A stretch of DNA of 64,000 nt from Escherichia coli (GTDB lineage Bacteria; Pseudomonadota; Gammaproteobacteria; Enterobacterales; Enterobacteriaceae): assembly GCF_003019035.1 (NCBI RefSeq), contig NZ_CP027447.1; one strand, 5' to 3'. Below are positions 3,001 through 40,271 of the stretch, piece after piece. The notes beneath the pieces are model-generated. The model was not told the origin of the DNA. It saw only the letters and a program-made list of their open reading frames with translations, and did not search any database. The translations under genes and the position numbers were made by a program. Numbering within the stretch: position 1 is the first letter of the stretch; each line of letters starts with the position of its first letter.

Positions 3001-3045
3001 TGATGCGCCGCGCGATAAACGTACCTATTTCCGTGAGATAAATTA
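3001..3045. repeat. Right-end terminal inverted repeat with two putative transposase-binding motifs
   Basis: TGATGCGCCGCGCGATAAACG...CCGTGAGATAAAT; motifs GCGATAAAC (3012..3020) and CCGTGAGATAAAT (3031..3043) are mirrored at the other end. Confidence 0.55.
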
Positions 3046-9331: not shown

Positions 9332-9387
9332 GGAGGCAGTATTGCCCCCGGGAAGTAAGCACCGATATTAAAGGCGTTTAAGAAGGT

Positions 9388-12150: not shown

Positions 12151-14615
12151 CAGCTGTACTCCTTACGTTGTTTCTGAGCCAGCAGACGCTCCAGCATTTT
12201 TTCCAGCTCATGCAGGCTCATATTCAGGGCACCAGCCAGCCCGGCAGGCGCTGCGGTTTCCTTACCATTGAGGAAAAACTGAGGATTAAAGCTGACCTGG
12301 ATACCGCCAGACGCTCCACCGCCGGTTGCCGTTGCGCCACGGCCTGAATATCCGGCAGCCATGATTTCCGGCGACGGGATACGGGGAACATCCGGTGTCA
12401 TTTCAGCGGCCAGACGCTGCCCGGCCAGTGCAGCAAGCGGAGTGGTCCGTTGCAGGCCAATGGCGGCACCCTGCGCGATATTGTCACCAAAGCCTATAAA
12501 CACGCGACTCGGTGAATGGATGCCCAGCTTTTCGCTGAACCAGTCACTGATGCTGTCACCCATTCCGGTTATGCTGGTTTTCAGTGACTCCCATTTGTTT
12601 CTGATGCCATTTATCAGCCCGTCAATAAGATGACCACCGAAGTCGGTGAATTTCGCCGGCAAATCAACGCCGAGATATTTCAGCGCAGCCGCAAAGGCTT
12701 TATAAAGCAGACCTGCCGGAGACCAGTTAACCAGCAGTTTACCAATTCCCGCGATACCGCCGTTAAAGGCTTCCTGAATGTCAGCCCAGCGCTGTTTAAA
12801 CCAGCTACTGACCGCGCCCCAGTTGCGGTAGATAAGGTAAGCTGCTGCCGCGACGGCGGTGATAGCGAGACCGATGGGATTCATCATCAGCGCCCGGCCA
12901 ATCCAGAGAACGGCACGCCCGGCGCTCATAATTCCGCGAACCAGCCCCCCTGAGAGCACACCCCCCAGTGTTCTGGCTCCTCTGGCGACGGCACCAAAGC
13001 CTGTCACCAGCCAGCGGAGTTTACCGCCTTCCCCCAGTGCGAGCATCAGACGAAGCCAGTTGGCCCGAAGTAAAACAGCATTTTTCCAGACGCTTACAAA
13101 GGGGGAAATAAGGAGATTCAGCCCAAACTTGAGACCGATAGTGGCCATCCTGAAAGCGAGTAATGCGCCCACAACCTTTATGGTGCTGCTGACGAGCTGC
13201 GGATTTGCCGCTATCCATTTGCCGACGCTGTCCATTAAAGGAATAAATGTTTCACCCAACTGGAGCAAAGCCGGACGCAAGGATTGCCCGATGCTGATAG
13301 CAGAATCATTAAAGCCGATCTGCATTCTGCGCCAGCGACCTTCAAGCGTATCATTCTGCTTTGCAGCATCCTTATCCAGGGTAGACATTGCAGCCGGAGC
13401 ATTCATTTCCTGCTTACTGGAAAGGTATTTATCCCAGCCCTGTCGCATTGACAGTAAATGGTTGACAGTCTGAATATCGGTAAAGACCTCAGCCAGACCA
13501 AATGACTCCATGAGTTTCTGCTGACCTTCCTGATCGCCTCTTGCTCCTGCAGCTTTCCATTGCTGCAAAAACGCTTTGCCTTTACTGTCGATAAAACGGT
13601 TGGCAATCATCAGTGAAGCTTCGTACTGCGAAAAACCCTGAGCGACGTAATTCTGCATTGACCCCGGGTAATCCACCCCGGCTTTAGCATATTTCTGGAT
13701 GGTATCTCCGCGGCCCATTGCTGCCAGCCAGTTGGACATATTGGTGACCGCTTCCTCTGCAGAGCCACTACCTTTACCGACCTCCAGACTGGCAACAATC
13801 TGGGTAATCGCATCTTTTCCATAAATACCACGAGCAGCGAAGGCTTTAGCCATACCGGGTAATGCTTTTGCCATATCCTTCAGCTCAAATGACCCAAGTT
13901 TGGCTCCTGTTGCCGCAATACCAAATGCCTGTTCAAGTTCTTTCGCATCAGTGATTCTGAGTGCATCGCTGAAGGCATAAGTCATTTTGGCAAGGTCGGT
14001 CATATCGGCTTTGGTTGCTGTAGCGGTCTTTCCAAGCATCTCTGCAAACGTTGCTGCCCGTTCGGGGGCCATACCATCAGCAACTAATTGTCCGACTCCC
14101 CCTAACAGAGACTCCTGCAGTTGGTTAACCTTCAGCGAGGCCTGTCTGATAGCCAGGCCAATTGCACGTTCCTGTTTTGCATCCAGGTCTCCTGTGACAC
14201 TGATATCCCGTAACTGTGATTCAAACGAGGCATATTGTTTAACCGAGGCCATGACCGGTGCGCCCAGCGTTCTGCCAATAGCATAGGTTTCTGCACCCTG
14301 ACCATAGAGCGCCAGGCGGTTAGCCTTCAACGCATCACCGGTGGCTGATACTGCTGACAGACGGCGCTGCTGACGTTCAATTTGCTCCATGGTGCGGCTT
14401 ACCCGCAGCAACTCGCTGTTGAGATGCTGCATCCGGGAAGAACCCAGTTGACCATAACGTTCTGTTGCCCGGGTTAAGGCATTCTGGCGTTCCTGCAGAC
14501 GGCGGGAGGTATCACCAAGGGAATCAAGGGCGCGTCGGGTGCCACTGACGGCTGAGCGGAAGCTGCTCCCGACAATGCCGCCAATAATGACGCCGACTGA
14601 AAATTCACTGGCCAC
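12150..14615 (-). CDS. Tail tape measure protein
   Basis: 821 aa, alpha-helical N-terminus and Gly-rich hydrophobic central segments; downstream of the chaperone pair, as in Mu and P2. Confidence 0.8.
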   Translation of the reverse strand: MASEFSVGVIIGGIVGSSFRSAVSGTRRALDSLGDTSRRLQERQNALTRATERYGQLGSSRMQHLNSELLRVSRTMEQIERQQRRLSAVSATGDALKANRLALYGQGAETYAIGRTLGAPVMASVKQYASFESQLRDISVTGDLDAKQERAIGLAIRQASLKVNQLQESLLGGVGQLVADGMAPERAATFAEMLGKTATATKADMTDLAKMTYAFSDALRITDAKELEQAFGIAATGAKLGSFELKDMAKALPGMAKAFAARGIYGKDAITQIVASLEVGKGSGSAEEAVTNMSNWLAAMGRGDTIQKYAKAGVDYPGSMQNYVAQGFSQYEASLMIANRFIDSKGKAFLQQWKAAGARGDQEGQQKLMESFGLAEVFTDIQTVNHLLSMRQGWDKYLSSKQEMNAPAAMSTLDKDAAKQNDTLEGRWRRMQIGFNDSAISIGQSLRPALLQLGETFIPLMDSVGKWIAANPQLVSSTIKVVGALLAFRMATIGLKFGLNLLISPFVSVWKNAVLLRANWLRLMLALGEGGKLRWLVTGFGAVARGARTLGGVLSGGLVRGIMSAGRAVLWIGRALMMNPIGLAITAVAAAAYLIYRNWGAVSSWFKQRWADIQEAFNGGIAGIGKLLVNWSPAGLLYKAFAAALKYLGVDLPAKFTDFGGHLIDGLINGIRNKWESLKTSITGMGDSISDWFSEKLGIHSPSRVFIGFGDNIAQGAAIGLQRTTPLAALAGQRLAAEMTPDVPRIPSPEIMAAGYSGRGATATGGGASGGIQVSFNPQFFLNGKETAAPAGLAGALNMSLHELEKMLERLLAQKQRKEYS

Positions 14616-15131: not shown

Positions 15132-15222
15132 ACTCCTTTGTAAATTCAGAGCAGTATGTCTGGCGGTGGACGTGACGGATATTAAAGGGGATTAAGAAGA
15201 AGGGGCCGGAGCCCCTGTGATG

Positions 15223-17699: not shown

Positions 17700-18160
17700 T
17701 CGCTTTCCTCATAGTTCACTTCGGTTAACAGCGGGCCGGACGGTAAATCGCTGTCTTCGATAAAGACGCTTTCAGTCGCGAAGTCGAGGGCGTATTGCCA
17801 CAGCCCCCTGACTTCACCGATGAACACCTCGCGGGTCAGCCAGATACGGCGGCGGCAGCCGGGCGGGGTGTGGCCGCCGAGAATGCGGCGGACAGCATCC
17901 AGGACATTAATCGCCCCTTTTTTACCGTTGAGCTGGCGGAAGACCACCGTGACGCAGAGCTGGATAGTCTGAGACTGGATCACCGCACCGGTATCATCCG
18001 GCCTGTCAAAGCGCGAACCGGCATAGCTCAGCAGCAACGCGCCAACCGGATGGTTCAGGCGATATTCAGCCGGTTTCTCCGGGAAGTACTCCACCTGCAG
18101 TTGCGGCAGCTTCTCGCGTAACCGGGCCAGTACCGCATCAAGGACGGGCAGAACGTTCAT
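17696..18160 (-). CDS. Putative head-tail joining/completion protein (Mu gp37-like position)
   Basis: 154 aa; gene order. Confidence 0.45.
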   Translation of the reverse strand: MNVLPVLDAVLARLREKLPQLQVEYFPEKPAEYRLNHPVGALLLSYAGSRFDRPDDTGAVIQSQTIQLCVTVVFRQLNGKKGAINVLDAVRRILGGHTPPGCRRRIWLTREVFIGEVRGLWQYALDFATESVFIEDSDLPSGPLLTEVNYEESE

Positions 18161-19923: not shown

Positions 19924-21039
19924 TTACAGGCAGCGTGCGACAGCAGCCTCATAGCTGATGCCTTCTTTTTTGGACAGGGCCACTGCTTTCTGATGCAGGG
20001 CCAGACGCTCAGGATCGGCTTCCGCAAACTCCGCCACATCCACCTTCACCGTGTCGCCGACACGCTCTTTTGTGGCCTGTTCGGCGAAATTCATCACCGG
20101 CTCCCCGTCGGAGAGCAATGAACGAAAGGCGGTGGCCAGCGGTGTGCGGCTTTCCCCCTCAGCAAACTCCACCGGCTTGTCGCCACCGGCGACGGCATCC
20201 AGCAGGGCAACCACCACGGAGGAGGCGCGGGGAGCCAGACGGCCCTCTGCGACAAGTTTTTCTGCAAAGGCCACATTGTCCTTATGCAGTTGCTCCTGTC
20301 TGACCTGTGCATCACGCGCATCGCGATCAGCAGCCTGCTGCTTCAGGCGGCGGTTCTCCTCCTGAAGGGCTTCAATCTCTTCTTTTGTCATCGATGATTC
20401 CTCGTTACTTGCGGAAGACGGCCCCGGGCCTGTCTCACTGAATTGGGCACCTGCTGCATCCTGCGACAGTGTGTCGCGGTACGCCTCTTCGCGCAGACTG
20501 TTGAGCTGCCATTCCGGCAGGACTTTTTCTGCCTCGTCCAGACTGAAGCGGGCGATCAGAAAATCGCGCAGCTTTCCCCACAGGGAGGCATTCGTGATGG
20601 CCTGCCAGTCGGCGAACTCCACCACACCTTCTTCCTGCTCACTGAAGGACACCTGTTTCAGCCCCTTGACGGAAGGTGGCTGTGCCCCGAGAAAGCCCAC
20701 ATGGCGCAGGTAGAGCACGCCGGGCTTCGGATTGGACGGTGAATCCGGGAGGTAGAAAGAGGCGGACACTTTTTTGAATCGTCCGTCGGTGACCATCTCA
20801 GCAAACTGCGGGTCCAGCTGGGCAGGCTCTGCCATCAGATCGACGCCGCTGAGCGACAGGGCTTTCACCCAGCCCCACGCCGGGTCTTCCGTTCTGGGAT
20901 GACCAATCACGAGTGGTGCTTCATGGACGGACGGGTCATAGGCTTTCACGCAGGCGGCAAGATCGTCTGGCGTGAACGGCAGTTTTTTGCCGTGCATATC
21001 GGTATGAGTACCGGCTTTAAAAATGTGAATGGCTGACAT
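19924..21039 (-). CDS. Head maturation protease/scaffold (Mu I-like)
   Basis: 371 aa with an acidic, coiled-coil-like middle region; position upstream of the capsid gene. Confidence 0.7.
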   Translation of the reverse strand: MSAIHIFKAGTHTDMHGKKLPFTPDDLAACVKAYDPSVHEAPLVIGHPRTEDPAWGWVKALSLSGVDLMAEPAQLDPQFAEMVTDGRFKKVSASFYLPDSPSNPKPGVLYLRHVGFLGAQPPSVKGLKQVSFSEQEEGVVEFADWQAITNASLWGKLRDFLIARFSLDEAEKVLPEWQLNSLREEAYRDTLSQDAAGAQFSETGPGPSSASNEESSMTKEEIEALQEENRRLKQQAADRDARDAQVRQEQLHKDNVAFAEKLVAEGRLAPRASSVVVALLDAVAGGDKPVEFAEGESRTPLATAFRSLLSDGEPVMNFAEQATKERVGDTVKVDVAEFAEADPERLALHQKAVALSKKEGISYEAAVARCL

Positions 21040-21253
21040 TTTGCTGTCCCGCGTTATGTTGTCGGAGACAGTTTGTGAGAAATGCAGGCCCGGCGATTTT
21101 AATCTGCTTTAGAAAACATCAGGGGAGAAGGACAGGGAAAGCAATGCGGTGAACCGGAAGCGGTTATAAAACAGAGGCTGTAAAGCCTTTATAAAGGTAA
21201 TACAGCCCCTCATTCGCTGGCAATGATAAATCACCCGCCTGAAGAGAGAAAAC

Positions 21254-21712
21254 TCAGCGACGGGCCGCTGATTCAAGATGGCGGACAATGGTATCGAGGA
21301 TGGGGATTACCACTTCAGGCTGTAGTTCTCCATCCCCCGTCACCGGCAGGAACGGGCGGGCCGGAAGTTCAACAGACTCATTACGCCCCGTTTTACCCCC
21401 GAACTGGTGAATGGCACCGTAAACAACGTTGGTCCCCACAACAGCCTGCCGGGCGTCATGGTCGGTTGATACTGACCCCATCAGACGCCCGGTATCCTGC
21501 AGTGTCTGCCCGTCACGTTCTTCCGCTGCCAGCGAGGGCATCCACCCCGGACGCCCCTCATCAAGAAAGTTAAACTGTGTTTCCGCCAGCAGGGTTCCGG
21601 CGATTTTGCGCATCGCGGGCTCCAGGTCTGTGGCAGCAAGATCCAGCGCACGGAGGCTCCGGCGCAGGGATTTATCGTTAATGGTGATACTGACCAGGTT
21701 ATCGGAAGCCAT
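21254..21712 (-). CDS. Virion morphogenesis protein (Mu G-like)
   Basis: 152 aa between the F-like and I-like genes. Confidence 0.6.
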   Translation of the reverse strand: MASDNLVSITINDKSLRRSLRALDLAATDLEPAMRKIAGTLLAETQFNFLDEGRPGWMPSLAAEERDGQTLQDTGRLMGSVSTDHDARQAVVGTNVVYGAIHQFGGKTGRNESVELPARPFLPVTGDGELQPEVVIPILDTIVRHLESAARR

Positions 21713-21714
21713 TG

Positions 21715-22536
21715 TTATCCTCTCAGTTCCTGTTGTGCCAGTGGCTGAAGCGTACCCTGATAGCGGGCCAGGTCGGGACGGTATGCTGCCCCCGGTGCAT
21801 AAGACCAGCCGACGTCGGTGGTCACCTTCGTGGTGCCGGTATTAAAGGTGGCCACGTTCCGCATTTCGCCGGTTTTCTCTGAGACCAGTTTCAGTTCCTG
21901 GCCCATGGCAGAGCCGGAGCTGATAACCTTCAGGCCCCGGGCACGTACATCCGCCGCACTCAGGGCAATCACACTACAGCGGCAGCGCCAGCCGTTCGGC
22001 GGGTAAAATGCCTGCCAGAACGGGTCATCCCAGCGCAGCACCAGACCATGCAGCGCCAGATGGCTCCTGCGGGTATGGCTGTCGTTGATGCCGGTATACA
22101 TCCAGTACGGCCTGTCGTCGACGTTTTCCATCTGCTCCGCCCAACGACCGGCGCTGTAGAGTACGGACATATTGGTGCGAAAGATGGTGTCGAGCCGCCA
22201 CGGGCTGCCCTGCTGAATGGTGACCGGCTCACCCGTTACCGGGTCAGTCGTGTCACGTGGTCCCCACCATCCCTTACGCTTCAGCACCGGCTCCAGCTCC
22301 TGCCGGAACCAGCGATCGGTTTTTCCTTCATCGACAGCCTGCTGCAGTGCCCCGCGAATATCTTCCAGAATATCCAGGCGGGTCACTTTAGCGACGGTAA
22401 AGGCGCGGGCATGGGCTTCCTGCCACATTTCTTCCCAGTCCCAGGTAATCTGATACCCTTTGGACTTCAGGTAACTGACTGCCCGCTTCGGGGGAAGCGT
22501 CATGCAGTACGCCAGTTCAGCCGTTGTCACGCTCAT
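21715..22536 (-). CDS. Minor head / head morphogenesis protein (Mu F-like)
   Basis: ATG at 22534-22536 (MSVTTAEL...) overlapping the portal gene end. Confidence 0.65.
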   Translation of the reverse strand: MSVTTAELAYCMTLPPKRAVSYLKSKGYQITWDWEEMWQEAHARAFTVAKVTRLDILEDIRGALQQAVDEGKTDRWFRQELEPVLKRKGWWGPRDTTDPVTGEPVTIQQGSPWRLDTIFRTNMSVLYSAGRWAEQMENVDDRPYWMYTGINDSHTRRSHLALHGLVLRWDDPFWQAFYPPNGWRCRCSVIALSAADVRARGLKVISSGSAMGQELKLVSEKTGEMRNVATFNTGTTKVTTDVGWSYAPGAAYRPDLARYQGTLQPLAQQELRG

Positions 22537-24013
22537 GCAGACGCCCCCGGATATTTGCCACAAAGAGAATGCGGGCCAGCCGCTCCTGCAGATCGTCCGT
22601 GTTCATCTGAGGGTAGAGCTCCGCCAGTTCGCCCAGCAGCTCAGACGGGTTAACCCCGTTTTCGACCCGCTTAAACAGAGGTGCCAGGACGGGTTCCAGC
22701 GTGCCATTTAACACACCTCCGTTCATCAGAATGTCCAGTGCGTCGTCAAGCTGCTGTTGAGCCTGAATATCGGCATCAATCGCCTCGGCAAATGACAGCG
22801 GCAGCATGTTCTTCTCGCGTTCTGACGGTGGTGTCTCGTCAATATCGCCGTCCTGCAGCTGGTACTCACGCTTGAAGTATTGCGGGGTCAGACGCAGACC
22901 CGCCCGGGTGAGTTTTTCGTCGCGGGTGGCACGGGTGTCATCAATGGCCTCCTGTTCCCACATGGCCCAGACCGGACACGGCACATCGCCGAAGTTCAGG
23001 GTGACCACCGTTCTTATGACCTGATTCACTGCCGCCTGAATGATGTCCGCATCCGCATCGCGGATATCAGCCGTCACCTCCAGCCCGGCCTGTGCAGAGG
23101 CCTTGTTACTGTTCGCTTCCGTGGTCTGATTCTGACCGAGTAATGCAATGGAGATCTCACTGCGTGACAGTGTGATCAGCTCGCGGAATACCTCGCTGCT
23201 GTCCGCCTTGCCATCCGCTGCTTTGAGTTCGATACTGCTGTCATCGGGGATGGCGGCCACCGCGTCCTCCACCATCTGCTCCATGGAGTCCAGCAGTTTT
23301 TCAATCTCTGCATCATTTGCACCCCTCGGGTGCTTACCGATCACCCACGGGGAGCCAAACTTTTCGGCAAAGCGGAGCCAGAATTTCATCCCGCCTTTCT
23401 TGAAGGCGACCGGCCAGAAGCACATGGACAGGTCCGGGAAACCGTAAGGATTGTCATAGGATGCATCCTGTGCCGGCACCACGAATTTTGACGGTGACAG
23501 CAGCTCACCCTCCACACCCGCATCACGCGCCCGGAAGCGCAGGCAGTTGTCCGTATCAAACTGGAACCACTCAGGTGGTTTGCCGACAATATCCGTCACC
23601 GCCCACGCCCTGACCGAACGGCCCCACATGATTTCACAGGGCTGATACCCGTAGAGCACGGCATCGCTCATCTCACCGATGATGCGGGACAGATCCAGAT
23701 CGTCGAGCATGTCGCGGATGAAACGGAAGACCCGGGCAGAAGCGTGACCGCGCTCCAGTCCACGCTCCAGCGATTTGAGCGCTGCTTTACGTCTGCGGAT
23801 ACAGCCCCCGACCAGCGGGTCGGTGCGCAGTTCGCGGTAGATACGGATATCCCGTCCCTGAGCCTTGAGAATGGGATCAGGATTGGGCAGATACATGCCC
23901 AGTCCGTAAAAGTCGATCGCGCGGCTGCGGGAGGCAATCTGCGCGGTCAGTGATTTCTGAGGCTCAGAAAAAGCAACAAATTCATCGGGTGAAACCCAGA
24001 TACCCCTCGCCAT
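22517..24013 (-). CDS. Portal protein (Mu H/gp29-like)
   Basis: 498 aa; its ATG overlaps the terminase stop (ATGA). Confidence 0.8.
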   Translation of the reverse strand: MARGIWVSPDEFVAFSEPQKSLTAQIASRSRAIDFYGLGMYLPNPDPILKAQGRDIRIYRELRTDPLVGGCIRRRKAALKSLERGLERGHASARVFRFIRDMLDDLDLSRIIGEMSDAVLYGYQPCEIMWGRSVRAWAVTDIVGKPPEWFQFDTDNCLRFRARDAGVEGELLSPSKFVVPAQDASYDNPYGFPDLSMCFWPVAFKKGGMKFWLRFAEKFGSPWVIGKHPRGANDAEIEKLLDSMEQMVEDAVAAIPDDSSIELKAADGKADSSEVFRELITLSRSEISIALLGQNQTTEANSNKASAQAGLEVTADIRDADADIIQAAVNQVIRTVVTLNFGDVPCPVWAMWEQEAIDDTRATRDEKLTRAGLRLTPQYFKREYQLQDGDIDETPPSEREKNMLPLSFAEAIDADIQAQQQLDDALDILMNGGVLNGTLEPVLAPLFKRVENGVNPSELLGELAELYPQMNTDDLQERLARILFVANIRGRLHERDNG

Positions 24014-25329
24014 CAGAATCCCTCCAGTATATGACCAGCCTCACGGCGGTGACGCGAACGGGCCATCACCGGCCCTGACGGTCCGTCAGTGGCGTTTATT
24101 GCCAGAAAACAGGCCCATGTGCGGTCGGCGTGACCTGCTGCATCACTTTCGGCCACAAAGCGGGGAGTTCCGGTAGGCCCGGTAACCTTGCGAAGTTTAT
24201 GCAGATCACTGCGCAGGACCACATCTCCCGCCGGAATACGCAGGCGGCGGTCCTCAAACATCTCCCTGCCACGGGTCGCGAGGGTGAGCTTGTTCGGGCT
24301 GTTAAATATCACCCCCTCCACACGGCTTCTGCCATGGCGACCCTGTGCATCCTCCACCGGCTTTTCTCCCATCCCGGTCTGATCCATACAGCAGCGCAGC
24401 ACGCGGTAACGGAAAAATACGTCATCCAGCAAAGCATCCTGCTCAGCAAAGGTGGCCCGTTTACGGGTGATGATTTCCCGGGTCCAGTAGACATCCCCCA
24501 CCTGTTCAAGCACCCAGATGACAAACAGGTCATTACGAACAGCAATATCCACCCCCACAAAGCAGGGGCCACCCGTATAGTGCACCGGCAGCCCGGCAGC
24601 ATCGTGCTCCACGCCGTCAATCAGTTCAAACGTCAGCCAGGCCGATGCCTCATCCAGCCACTTCAGTTCAAACTCCTGTGCCCAGGCGTCATCATCGTTG
24701 AGCGCCTGTCGCATCTGTGCAATATCCCGCGGCAGACCATCACGCACGGCACGGTAAATATCCACGATGTGACGTGACCAGACATTTTCAAGGGCGTTGC
24801 TGGTCATCAGTTCATAAAACTTGTTTCCCTTGCCGTTCGGTGTCGATGTCACACGCAGTCTGTAGCCGTTGGAAATGACCGGAAACAGAGCGGTCCAGAT
24901 TTTGCGACTGTCGGCATGGAAGGCGAACTCATCCAGAAAGACGTTAGCCGCAAACCCACGAGCCGTGTCGGGATTCGCCGGCAGGGCCGTGATACGGGAG
25001 CCGCCGGGTAACTCCACCTCAAGCATGGTGTAGCGTTCGCCGCTTTCAGCACGGTAATAACTTTCCACCTCACGGGCCGCCATCCGGTAGGCGCTGCAGT
25101 GTTTTTTCACCCCCTCCACCATGGCTTCTTTTGCCTGACGCTCCCCGCGCGAGAGGATCACCCAGCGTGTACGTCCCCCTGAGGCCTCCGTTTCAAAACA
25201 GTCATCAACCAGTTCCAGCGTGGTGGTGAACGTCTTGCCCGTCTGACGGGCAAACATACCAATCTTGAAACGGGCACGATCCAGAAACCACGACTGCTGA
25301 TAGGGATACAGCTGAATGGCCGCTGTCAT
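24013..25329 (-). CDS. Terminase large subunit (Mu gp28-like)
   Basis: 438 aa with an N-terminal ATPase motif (ARQTGKTF) and C-terminal nuclease-like acidic residues. Confidence 0.8.
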   Translation of the reverse strand: MTAAIQLYPYQQSWFLDRARFKIGMFARQTGKTFTTTLELVDDCFETEASGGRTRWVILSRGERQAKEAMVEGVKKHCSAYRMAAREVESYYRAESGERYTMLEVELPGGSRITALPANPDTARGFAANVFLDEFAFHADSRKIWTALFPVISNGYRLRVTSTPNGKGNKFYELMTSNALENVWSRHIVDIYRAVRDGLPRDIAQMRQALNDDDAWAQEFELKWLDEASAWLTFELIDGVEHDAAGLPVHYTGGPCFVGVDIAVRNDLFVIWVLEQVGDVYWTREIITRKRATFAEQDALLDDVFFRYRVLRCCMDQTGMGEKPVEDAQGRHGRSRVEGVIFNSPNKLTLATRGREMFEDRRLRIPAGDVVLRSDLHKLRKVTGPTGTPRFVAESDAAGHADRTWACFLAINATDGPSGPVMARSRHRREAGHILEGF

Positions 25330-28229: not shown

Positions 28230-28359
28230 GTGTGTCTCCTTGTCTGGTGGAGACAGCATCACAAATACAGGGCGCGAAGGATTTTAAAGCGCGTTAAGAG
28301 AGCCGGGGATACGGGATGTGCAGGATAAACGATGAATTATTCACAGAGGAGAATACGAT

Positions 28360-38351: not shown

Positions 38352-38793
38352 ACAACGTCTTATCCAGCTCATTCATATTGCCCGTAATGAACTGGGTATG
38401 GATGAAGACACCTACCGCCAGATGTTACAGGGGCTGACCGGTAAAGCCTCAACCAAAGGAATGGATACCACACAACTAAACTGCGTGCTGGAATCCATGA
38501 AAAGGAAAGGCTTTCGCGTTAAGCCTGCCGGAAAAGCCAGCTCCGGTTTACCGCTGGATAACCATCCGCAGTCCAGGAAAATCCGTGCGCTATGGCTTGA
38601 AATGGCTGCTGCCGGCATTGTTCGTGACCGTTCAGAAAATGCATTAGCGCGGTGGATCAAGCGGGAAACGGGCATCAGCGCCCTGCGCTGGCTCAATACT
38701 GAACAGGCAAGCAGTGTTATTGAGAAACTGAAGAAGTGGCAGCACAGAGCTGCGGGAGTAAAACATGAGCGACCTGAATCAGTTTCGAAGTAA
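38341..38793 (+). CDS. GemA/gp16-like protein
   Basis: MMTKQRLIQLIHIARNELGMDEDTYRQMLQGLTGKAS... matches the GemA family pattern. Confidence 0.6.
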   Translation: MMTKQRLIQLIHIARNELGMDEDTYRQMLQGLTGKASTKGMDTTQLNCVLESMKRKGFRVKPAGKASSGLPLDNHPQSRKIRALWLEMAAAGIVRDRSENALARWIKRETGISALRWLNTEQASSVIEKLKKWQHRAAGVKHERPESVSK

Positions 38794-39163
38794 AGGGCCG
38801 GAACTCCTGGTGGAGCTGGCACAGCATACCTCTGAGACCGTTCGCGAGATTATTGATATTGAGCCCGCAATTGCCGACCAGATTGGTCAGGCCGTCGCGA
38901 ACCGAATGATGCAGGTCTGGGGCGGGCAAAACGTTTATTTCCCGATGGGCATGGTATGGAAGGTCAGTCAGCGCGACCGGGAAATCTTCAGGGAGTTTAA
39001 CGGACGCAACCACCACGAACTGGCCCGCAAGTTTGGTGTTTCGCTTCAGTGGGTCTACAGCGTGGTTAAGCGGGTCAGAAAAGAAGAACTGGATCGGATG
39101 CAGGGCAGGTTGTTTGATGAAGATCTGCCAGAGGAGACGAAAGACGTTAACAAATCCAGATAA
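38765..39163 (+). CDS. Mor/C-family transcription activator
   Basis: C-terminal GGQNVYFPMG...RDREIFREFNGRNHHELARKFGVSLQWVYSVVKR matches the Mor/C pattern (GGxxVYIPxG...FNGRN..EL...YGV...VY). Confidence 0.7.
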   Translation: MSDLNQFRSKGPELLVELAQHTSETVREIIDIEPAIADQIGQAVANRMMQVWGGQNVYFPMGMVWKVSQRDREIFREFNGRNHHELARKFGVSLQWVYSVVKRVRKEELDRMQGRLFDEDLPEETKDVNKSR

Positions 39164-40226: not shown

Positions 40227-40271
40227 TTATTTATCTCACGGATCCCCCTTCATTTATCTCATGTCTGATCA
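40227..40271. repeat. Left-end terminal inverted repeat with two putative transposase-binding motifs
   Basis: Reverse complement reads TGATCAGACATGAGATAAATG...CCGTGAGATAAAT, mirroring the right end. Confidence 0.55.

Follow-up and report, generated by a model that had tools for sequence, protein, structure and literature searches.

A conserved palindrome at the apex of a terminator-like hairpin between two late gene blocks of a BcepMu-like prophage in Escherichia coli

The perfect 12-bp palindrome CCTTTATAAAGG forms the apex of a terminator-like hairpin between two late gene blocks of a BcepMu-like (Mu-like) transposable prophage of E. coli. Across Klebsiella, Burkholderia, Ralstonia and Pseudomonas relatives, the palindrome core SYTTTATAAAGS stays unchanged amid diverging flanks, and a separate motif further along the same non-coding gap is the predicted activator site of an internal late promoter. 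We read the hairpin, tentatively and with slightly less than even confidence, as a Rho-independent terminator, or a hairpin stabilising the RNA 3' end, that closes the first late transcription unit. The prophage is common, and its late transcription units and promoters are without annotation; the result is a testable map, i.e. four Mor-type promoters and two terminator-like boundaries, for use in annotation and in induction studies.

Prophage and late gene order

The window, i.e. the whole analysed stretch of 64 kb of E. coli DNA, contains the prophage at positions 3001-40271 (37,271 bp), its bounds (TG at 3001, CA at 40271) being given by comparison with genomes without the element. The insertion lies between anmK and slyB and is flanked by a target duplication of 6 bp, AATCAA; at either end of the prophage, CGTGAGATAAAT motifs recur, probably as binding sites for the transposase. 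The DNA shares 99.5 % identity with Escherichia phage PhiKM (genus Bcepmuvirus) and around 80 % with Klebsiella phage KP12, and the gap sequence is present in 636 of 5,426 complete E. coli genomes. The KP12 record (OM835952.1, L002, 'Klebsiella phage KP12 clone KP12_2') is classified under Vequintavirinae, its content being that of a BcepMu-like transposable phage, possibly a prophage assembled along with the phage that the record names.

The late genes are on the minus strand and, together with the putative activator gene, are arranged as follows (late genes in 5' to 3' order):

25329..24013, minus strand: terminase
24013..22517, minus strand: Mu-type portal
22563..21715, minus strand: F-like gene
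21712..21254, minus strand: G-like virion morphogenesis gene (Pfam PF05069, E = 4.9e-23)
21253..21040, minus strand: non-coding gap of 214 bp between the G-like and I-like genes
21039..19924, minus strand: I-like head protease/scaffold gene, 371 aa (homology to BcepMu gp32 and the phiE255 head maturation protease genes)
38765..39163, plus strand: Mor/C-family activator gene (Pfam Mor PF08765, E = 1.1e-43), the only one of this family found in the prophage

The 214-bp gap between the G-like and the protease/scaffold genes, described in the initial annotation, is confirmed by the list of ORFs and by the PF05069 match. The G-like gene, with its TGA stop codon at 21256..21254, is the last of the first late transcription unit, while the I-like gene opens the second and is followed by the major capsid gene. 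The exact centre of the prophage is position 21636, i.e. the gap lies 383-596 bp away from it.

A small protein encoded in the gap was considered and rejected: the ORF from GTG 21234 to TAA 21109, annotated in KP12, is not conserved as a protein, its translation diverging completely past the part that is conserved at the nucleotide level, and it has no start codon in L035. Small CDSs are annotated in the G-I gap of two relatives, i.e. KP12_270 (L002, 3517-3642) and phiE255 gp7 (L005, 2288-2419); since they overlie conserved non-coding elements and show no conservation at the protein level, both are probably spurious.

The palindrome and its hairpin

The following elements of the gap are considered below:

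21228..21238, plus strand: 11-mer A|AATC|ACCCGC, equal to the cleavage core of the Mu strong gyrase site (SGS) variant nuB103 and matching the wild type at 10 of 11 positions
21210..21173, minus strand: 38-nt stem-loop (RNA fold; same centroid structure)
21186-21197, no strand: perfect 12-bp palindrome CCTTTATAAAGG (exact match) at the hairpin apex, with the letters TTTATAAA as part of its core
21180..21195, minus strand: 16-mer TTTATAAAGGCTTTAC, identical in Burkholderia phage BcepMu
21166..21171, minus strand: U-rich tail UUUUAU, one nucleotide past the stem (GUUUUAU)
21113..21098, minus strand: Mor-type dyad of the P_I-like promoter, followed by ATC at 21097..21095
21075..21064, minus strand: -10-like CAAACT (21075..21070) and GTCTCC, assigned by spacing and conservation

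As the initial annotation had it, the palindrome sits within a longer imperfect inverted repeat, GAGGCTGTA...TACAGCCCCTC, for which the repeat finder gives 22-nt arms at 21173-21194 and 21189-21210 with 82 % complementarity. CCTTTATAAAGG, the enterobacterial form of the invariant family core, occurs as a single exact copy in the window. On its own, a perfect 12-bp palindrome is ordinary (15 observed in the window vs 15.6 expected); the extended repeat is unusual, matching at 15 of 19 arm positions, which only two positions in the 64 kb equal. The main evidence for a palindrome beyond chance is comparative and is given below. The family type of palindrome occurs in perfect form once more, at 12697-12708 inside the tape-measure gene (GCTTTATAAAGC); this second copy has the form seen in the Pseudomonas-type relatives and reads TTTATAAAGCCTTTGC on the minus strand, and no equivalent second copy is present in BcepMu.

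In minus-strand RNA, the outer stem of the stem-loop has 10 bp (21210-21201 with 21182-21173) and is separated by a 3x3 internal loop from an inner stem of 4 bp, which is capped by a UAUA loop; the base is G+C-rich, with AGGGGC paired with GCCUCU. The stability of the stem-loop is about -22 to -24 kcal/mol (fold -24.2, z = -2.9), better than that of shuffled sequence, 2 of 200 shuffles doing as well. The hairpin starts 44 nt past the G stop codon, upstream of the next late promoter, and a terminator scan picks it up with the tail CTGTTTTATA; the U-run is on the late-gene strand only, the opposite strand reading CATTCGCTGG after the hairpin. The late transcript would fold into the palindrome-tipped stem-loop shortly after the G-like stop codon, followed by UUUUAU, and the hairpin would terminate, or stabilise the RNA 3' end of, the first late unit (holin through G). 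From a separate Mor-dependent promoter, around 110 nt downstream, RNA polymerase would then restart and transcribe the I-like gene and the genes beyond it.

Several observations support the hairpin as a terminator, i.e. its stability and the directionality of the U-run, and also the preservation of pairing through changes from G.U to G-C, both between the window and KP12 and between BcepMu and phiE255. A comparable hairpin occupies the equivalent position in the G-I gap of Mu. Moreover, a canonical terminator is found at the next operon boundary (see the second list below), and four late promoters, as in Mu, would divide the late region into units of around 5-7 kb, with the hairpin at the first boundary. 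A G+C-rich stem base and, in the window, a U-rich tail, on one strand and past the last gene of an operon, are likewise what is seen in Rho-independent terminators, and a terminator followed by a Mor-type promoter is an arrangement already known.

However, the structure also departs from the usual Rho-independent terminator: the hairpin is long and interrupted (10 bp, 3x3 internal loop, 4 bp), its apex is conserved across distant hosts, and the U-tract is not conserved in relatives. The tail is GUUUUAU in the window, weaker in KP12 (CGCUUUGC) and UUUGGUU in BcepMu, with none in the Pseudomonas-type loci. Outer stems and hairpin strength are not conserved across the family either, the strength around the core varying from -7 to -24 kcal/mol. 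In the group with 73-75 % identity (L035 and relatives), the outer stem, i.e. the 5' arm, of the window is absent, and a different strong hairpin lies directly upstream, ending at the palindrome. Across 15 family loci, strand-specific RNA folding gave no consistent sense-strand bias, the sense strand folding better than the antisense strand in seven of them, and an Rfam search returned no match at E = 1 or better. Finally, 9-16 nt of identity between Escherichia and Burkholderia phages would be unusual for terminators. Since a terminator role leaves the invariant core SYTTTATAAAGS unaccounted for, its conservation points to a putative additional, sequence-specific partner.

Predicted Mor-type late promoters

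The gap has a second conserved block, TCTAAAGCAGATTAAAA, which all enterobacterial relatives carry unaltered and BcepMu in near-exact form (CGTAAAGCCGATTAAAA). A search of the window with this block revealed three sibling sites, and the pattern YYTAA-N6-TTAAW-ATC, derived from the four, has exactly four matches in the 64 kb (0.00 expected), all on the minus strand and at late-operon starts. As the pattern was derived from the same sites, its weight rests on the lack of extra matches and on the location of all four at operon starts. The four sites and the terminator next to one of them are:

28298..28283, minus strand: (A) CTTAA-CGCGCT-TTAAA, ATC, N19, GATGCT, GTCTCC; putative lysis-operon promoter, upstream of the holin gene (Pfam match)
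21113..21098, minus strand: (D) TCTAA-AGCAGA-TTAAA, ATC, N19, CAAACT, GTCTCC; putative P_I-like promoter in the G-I gap
15215..15194, minus strand: canonical terminator GGGGCTCCGGCCCC (15215..15202) followed by TTCTTCTT, 8 nt past a stop codon and overlapping site 15196
15196..15181, minus strand: (B) CTTAA-TCCCCT-TTAAT, ATC, N19, CATACT, GCTCTG; late-operon start
9382..9367, minus strand: (C) CTTAA-ACGCCT-TTAAT, ATC, N20, AATACT, GCCTCC; upstream of baseplate and fibre genes

The distance from the dyad to the -10-like hexamer is 22-23 nt in all four, and their common layout can be written as CTTAA-N6(G/C-rich)-TTAAW-ATC-N19/20-nAnACT. For the site in the G-I gap, CAnACT is retained in relatives, with variable flanks. 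BcepMu carries TAAAGCCGATTAAAAGACC twice, i.e. upstream of its holin gene and of gp32, the I equivalent, each time with a -10-like hexamer at the same 22-nt spacing. The dyad is also found in more distant relatives (L046-L048), as TTAA-N6/7-TTAA. New in detail is a candidate late-promoter consensus for BcepMu-like phages, and we infer that the Mor homologue binds the TTAA-N6-TTAA dyads.

The longest holin ORF opens with a GTG at 28262, upstream of the predicted start of the lysis-operon transcript at around 28240, so that the shorter holin start (28229; PGAP, strain 503025) is more likely.

In the gap, the start is predicted near 21063, with the dyad centred at about -42.5. The suggestion of the initial annotation that the gap holds an internal, activator-type late promoter therefore stands as a prediction, equivalent to Mu P_I, but the palindrome, which had been put forward as the site of the Mor/C-like activator or as a promoter element, appears to be neither: the predicted activator site is the different motif at 21113..21098, around 85 bases further on (78-90 bp downstream of the palindrome). 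The palindrome is probably not a Mor site, because it lies at about -128 from the predicted start (centre 21191.5), has no TTAA core and is absent from the three other late promoters; no copy was found in the upstream regions at 28.3, 15.2 and 9.4 kb, an absence that the initial annotation had named as counting against its reading.

That the palindrome itself binds a Mor/C-like activator or acts as a core promoter element is hence very improbable in our view. It does share its gap with a Mor-type promoter, its flank CTGTAAAG (plus strand) is like CTGTAAAC, found ahead of the Mor site in Mu Pm, and TAAAG pentamers recur in both the palindrome region and the Mor-type element. Against this, the halves of the palindrome abut, with no 6-bp spacer, and on neither strand is there a TTAA-N6-TTAA dyad, an ATC or a -10-like partner at the spacing of the family; it is also missing from the second BcepMu site, and about -128 compares with about -43.5 for Mor and C. 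Combinations resembling sigma-70 -35 and -10 elements near the palindrome are not conserved in relatives. A sigma-70 promoter around it was likewise rejected, as TTTACA-N17-TTTAAT is confined to the L035 group and CTGACG-N17-TATAAA to BcepMu.

Conservation of the core and a possible protein-binding site

The conservation of the palindrome is concentrated in its centre. The 9-mer TTTATAAAG is retained in all examined lineages of the subfamily and is missing from more distant relatives, in which the I protein is 36-61 % identical. The pair flanking it is CC..GG in the enterobacterial loci, GC..GC in the Pseudomonas-type loci and GT..GG in those of Burkholderia and Ralstonia. In phiE255, the 16-mer TTTATAAAGGCTTTAC shows one change, and the rest of the gap is unalignable between the window and the two Burkholderia phages; in both BcepMu and phiE255, TTTATAAAGGCTTTAC lies inside a hairpin with a differing outer stem. 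Relatives with 80 % identity have the same hairpin as the window apart from changes from G.U to G-C, and the 50 nt past the hairpin are scrambled, with offsetting 1-nt indels. The 9-mer is single-copy in the BcepMu genome (63 % GC), where it is located at 51 % of its length. A second point that is new in detail is this palindrome, which is single-copy, lies in the central gap and is conserved among Escherichia, Pseudomonas and Burkholderia phages.

Under the best rival to the terminator, and one that does not exclude it, the palindrome would be bound as DNA by a dimeric protein of the phage or the host and would have an architectural or regulatory role upstream of the P_I-like promoter, its hairpin potential being a by-product of the symmetry; we consider this possible, if on the doubtful side. 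It would fit the invariance of SYTTTATAAAGS amid divergent flanks from enterobacterial to Pseudomonas-type relatives, the compensatory change of the outermost pair from CC..GG to GC..GC, which retains a perfect 12-bp palindrome, and the uniqueness of the core in the G+C-rich BcepMu genome. In all cases, the core also precedes the GATTAAAA of the Mor-type site by 77-93 nt, and between the window and KP12 this distance is held at 91 nt by offsetting -1/+1 indels.

However, a candidate binder was sought and none was found. The IHF consensus (WATCAANNNNTTR) is one base off in the window and lost in other lineages, so that an IHF site at the palindrome was rejected (by our reading of the sequences, the TTR part is missing in those lineages); by the same reading, the Fis consensus does not fit, and the prophage has no HU-like gene. 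Helical phasing of the palindrome with the Mor site was rejected as well, their offsets (77-93 nt) showing no one phase, and a position of about -128 is far for sigma-70 activation.

Comparison with Mu

The G-I region of Mu is among the closest known counterparts of the arrangement described here with respect to layout: G is upstream and the I protease/scaffold gene downstream of a non-coding gap of around 200 bp near the genome centre, a long hairpin with an AT-rich centre is followed by TTTTAT and a CT-rich tract, and an activator-dependent late promoter precedes I (predicted here, C-dependent P_I in Mu). The Mu hairpin reads ACGGGATT...AATCCCGT, followed by TTTTATCTT. In contrast to this similar layout, nothing is alignable between the two gaps but an 11-mer, and the invariant TTTATAAAG has no Mu counterpart. 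The dyad is TTAA-N6-TTAA here and TTAT-N6-ATAA in the C site of Mu, and the BcepMu-like family has one Mor/C homologue, whereas Mu has two.

The likeness to Mu Pm concerns the downstream motif at 21113..21098 and not the palindrome. In Mu, the Mor site is centred at -43.5 and consists of two 5-bp inverted repeats on either side of a 6-bp, G/C-rich spacer, the promoter having a -10 and lacking a -35 (PMC4390567); from the Mu sequence we read it as AGTAA-AGCCGG-TTAAT. The sites found here, CTTAA-CGCGCT-TTAAA and similar, share the 16-bp dyad with a G/C-rich hexamer, its position around 43 bp upstream of the start and a recognisable -10 without a -35. The number of late promoters in the prophage, four, is also the same as in Mu (PMC2582627). 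Just as the terminator overlaps site 15196, the Mor site of Mu Pm overlaps a hairpin with a T-run (AGCCGGTTAATCCGGCTTTTTTT); in the G-I gap, unlike at Mu Pm, the hairpin and the activator site do not overlap and are around 60 nt apart. The hairpin and T-run at Mu Pm, at the end of the early operon, are the terminator of the early transcript.

The gyrase-site question

The strong gyrase site of Mu is annotated in its G-I gap (GenBank) and, according to published work, must be central to work well. The gap described here, including the palindrome, might be its counterpart, in which case bound gyrase would supercoil the prophage and so help its ends to pair for replicative transposition; we regard this as improbable. 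The position would suit, as the gap is about as far from the prophage centre (383-596 bp) as the Mu site is from the Mu centre (478 bp), and the layout of core, hairpin, T-run and CT-rich tract is like that of Mu. In addition, the 11-mer A|AATC|ACCCGC, which begins 16 nt past the G stop codon, equals the nuB103 cleavage core (Mu SGS fragment from the Sutormin 2019 supplement). However, we estimate that a 10/11 match between two 200-bp gaps is expected around 0.65 times by chance, and the 11-mer is missing in BcepMu and is turned the other way round with respect to G and I; the match probably arose by chance.

We rebuilt an E. coli gyrase matrix by symmetric regression on 611 sites, using Topo-Seq site coordinates and scores (Sutormin et al. 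2019 supplement) and 275 kb of W3110 sequence. The Topo-Seq sites have, as expected, G at position 0 and C at +3, and the matrix, an approximation with a cross-validated r of 0.87 vs the published scores, ranks the Mu site third among 36,717 positions, with a score of 9.64. By this approximate matrix, the gap reaches a maximum of 5.1, with 4.2 near the palindrome and 4.08 at 21229 (within the top 6 % of prophage positions), where a crude S/W template made from the published consensus, now superseded by the matrix, had looked suggestive. The gap thus shares the central G-I position of a Mu-type gyrase site but not its motif and, because of the low matrix scores and the absence of the core from BcepMu, a gyrase site in the gap is not supported. 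In favour of such a site, Oram and Pato (2004) reportedly observed that gyrase cleaves the Mu-like prophage of S. Typhi CT18 in its central fragment.

It is conceivable, although again improbable, that SYTTTATAAAGS itself, being invariant, single-copy and always in the central G-I gap, is a cis-acting site at the genome centre of BcepMu-like transposable phages. If so, it would do the job of the Mu gyrase site, pairing the prophage ends or organising a separate domain, and it would need a different recognition partner, because SYTTTATAAAGS does not match the E. coli gyrase motif. A single central palindrome conserved across the family is a specific lead to the question of whether a central cis-acting site is needed by transposable phages besides Mu.

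Around the middle of the prophage, the best match to the gyrase motif is at 21590 (plus strand, position 0), inside the G-like gene and 46 bp from the exact centre; it scores 9.16 and ranks sixth in the prophage, and all enterobacterial relatives score 8.7-10.7 at this position. Randomisation of synonymous codons showed that the protein sequence alone gives 7.5-8.3, so the excess is small (p = 0.005-0.18 per locus). In the Mu genome (NC_000929, L061; 17876-17880), the GenBank feature 'gyrase cut site 17879..17880' corresponds to the bottom-strand cut; the top-strand cut, as placed by the Topo-Seq centring and the rebuilt matrix, falls after 17875, giving a 4-bp stagger of AATC.
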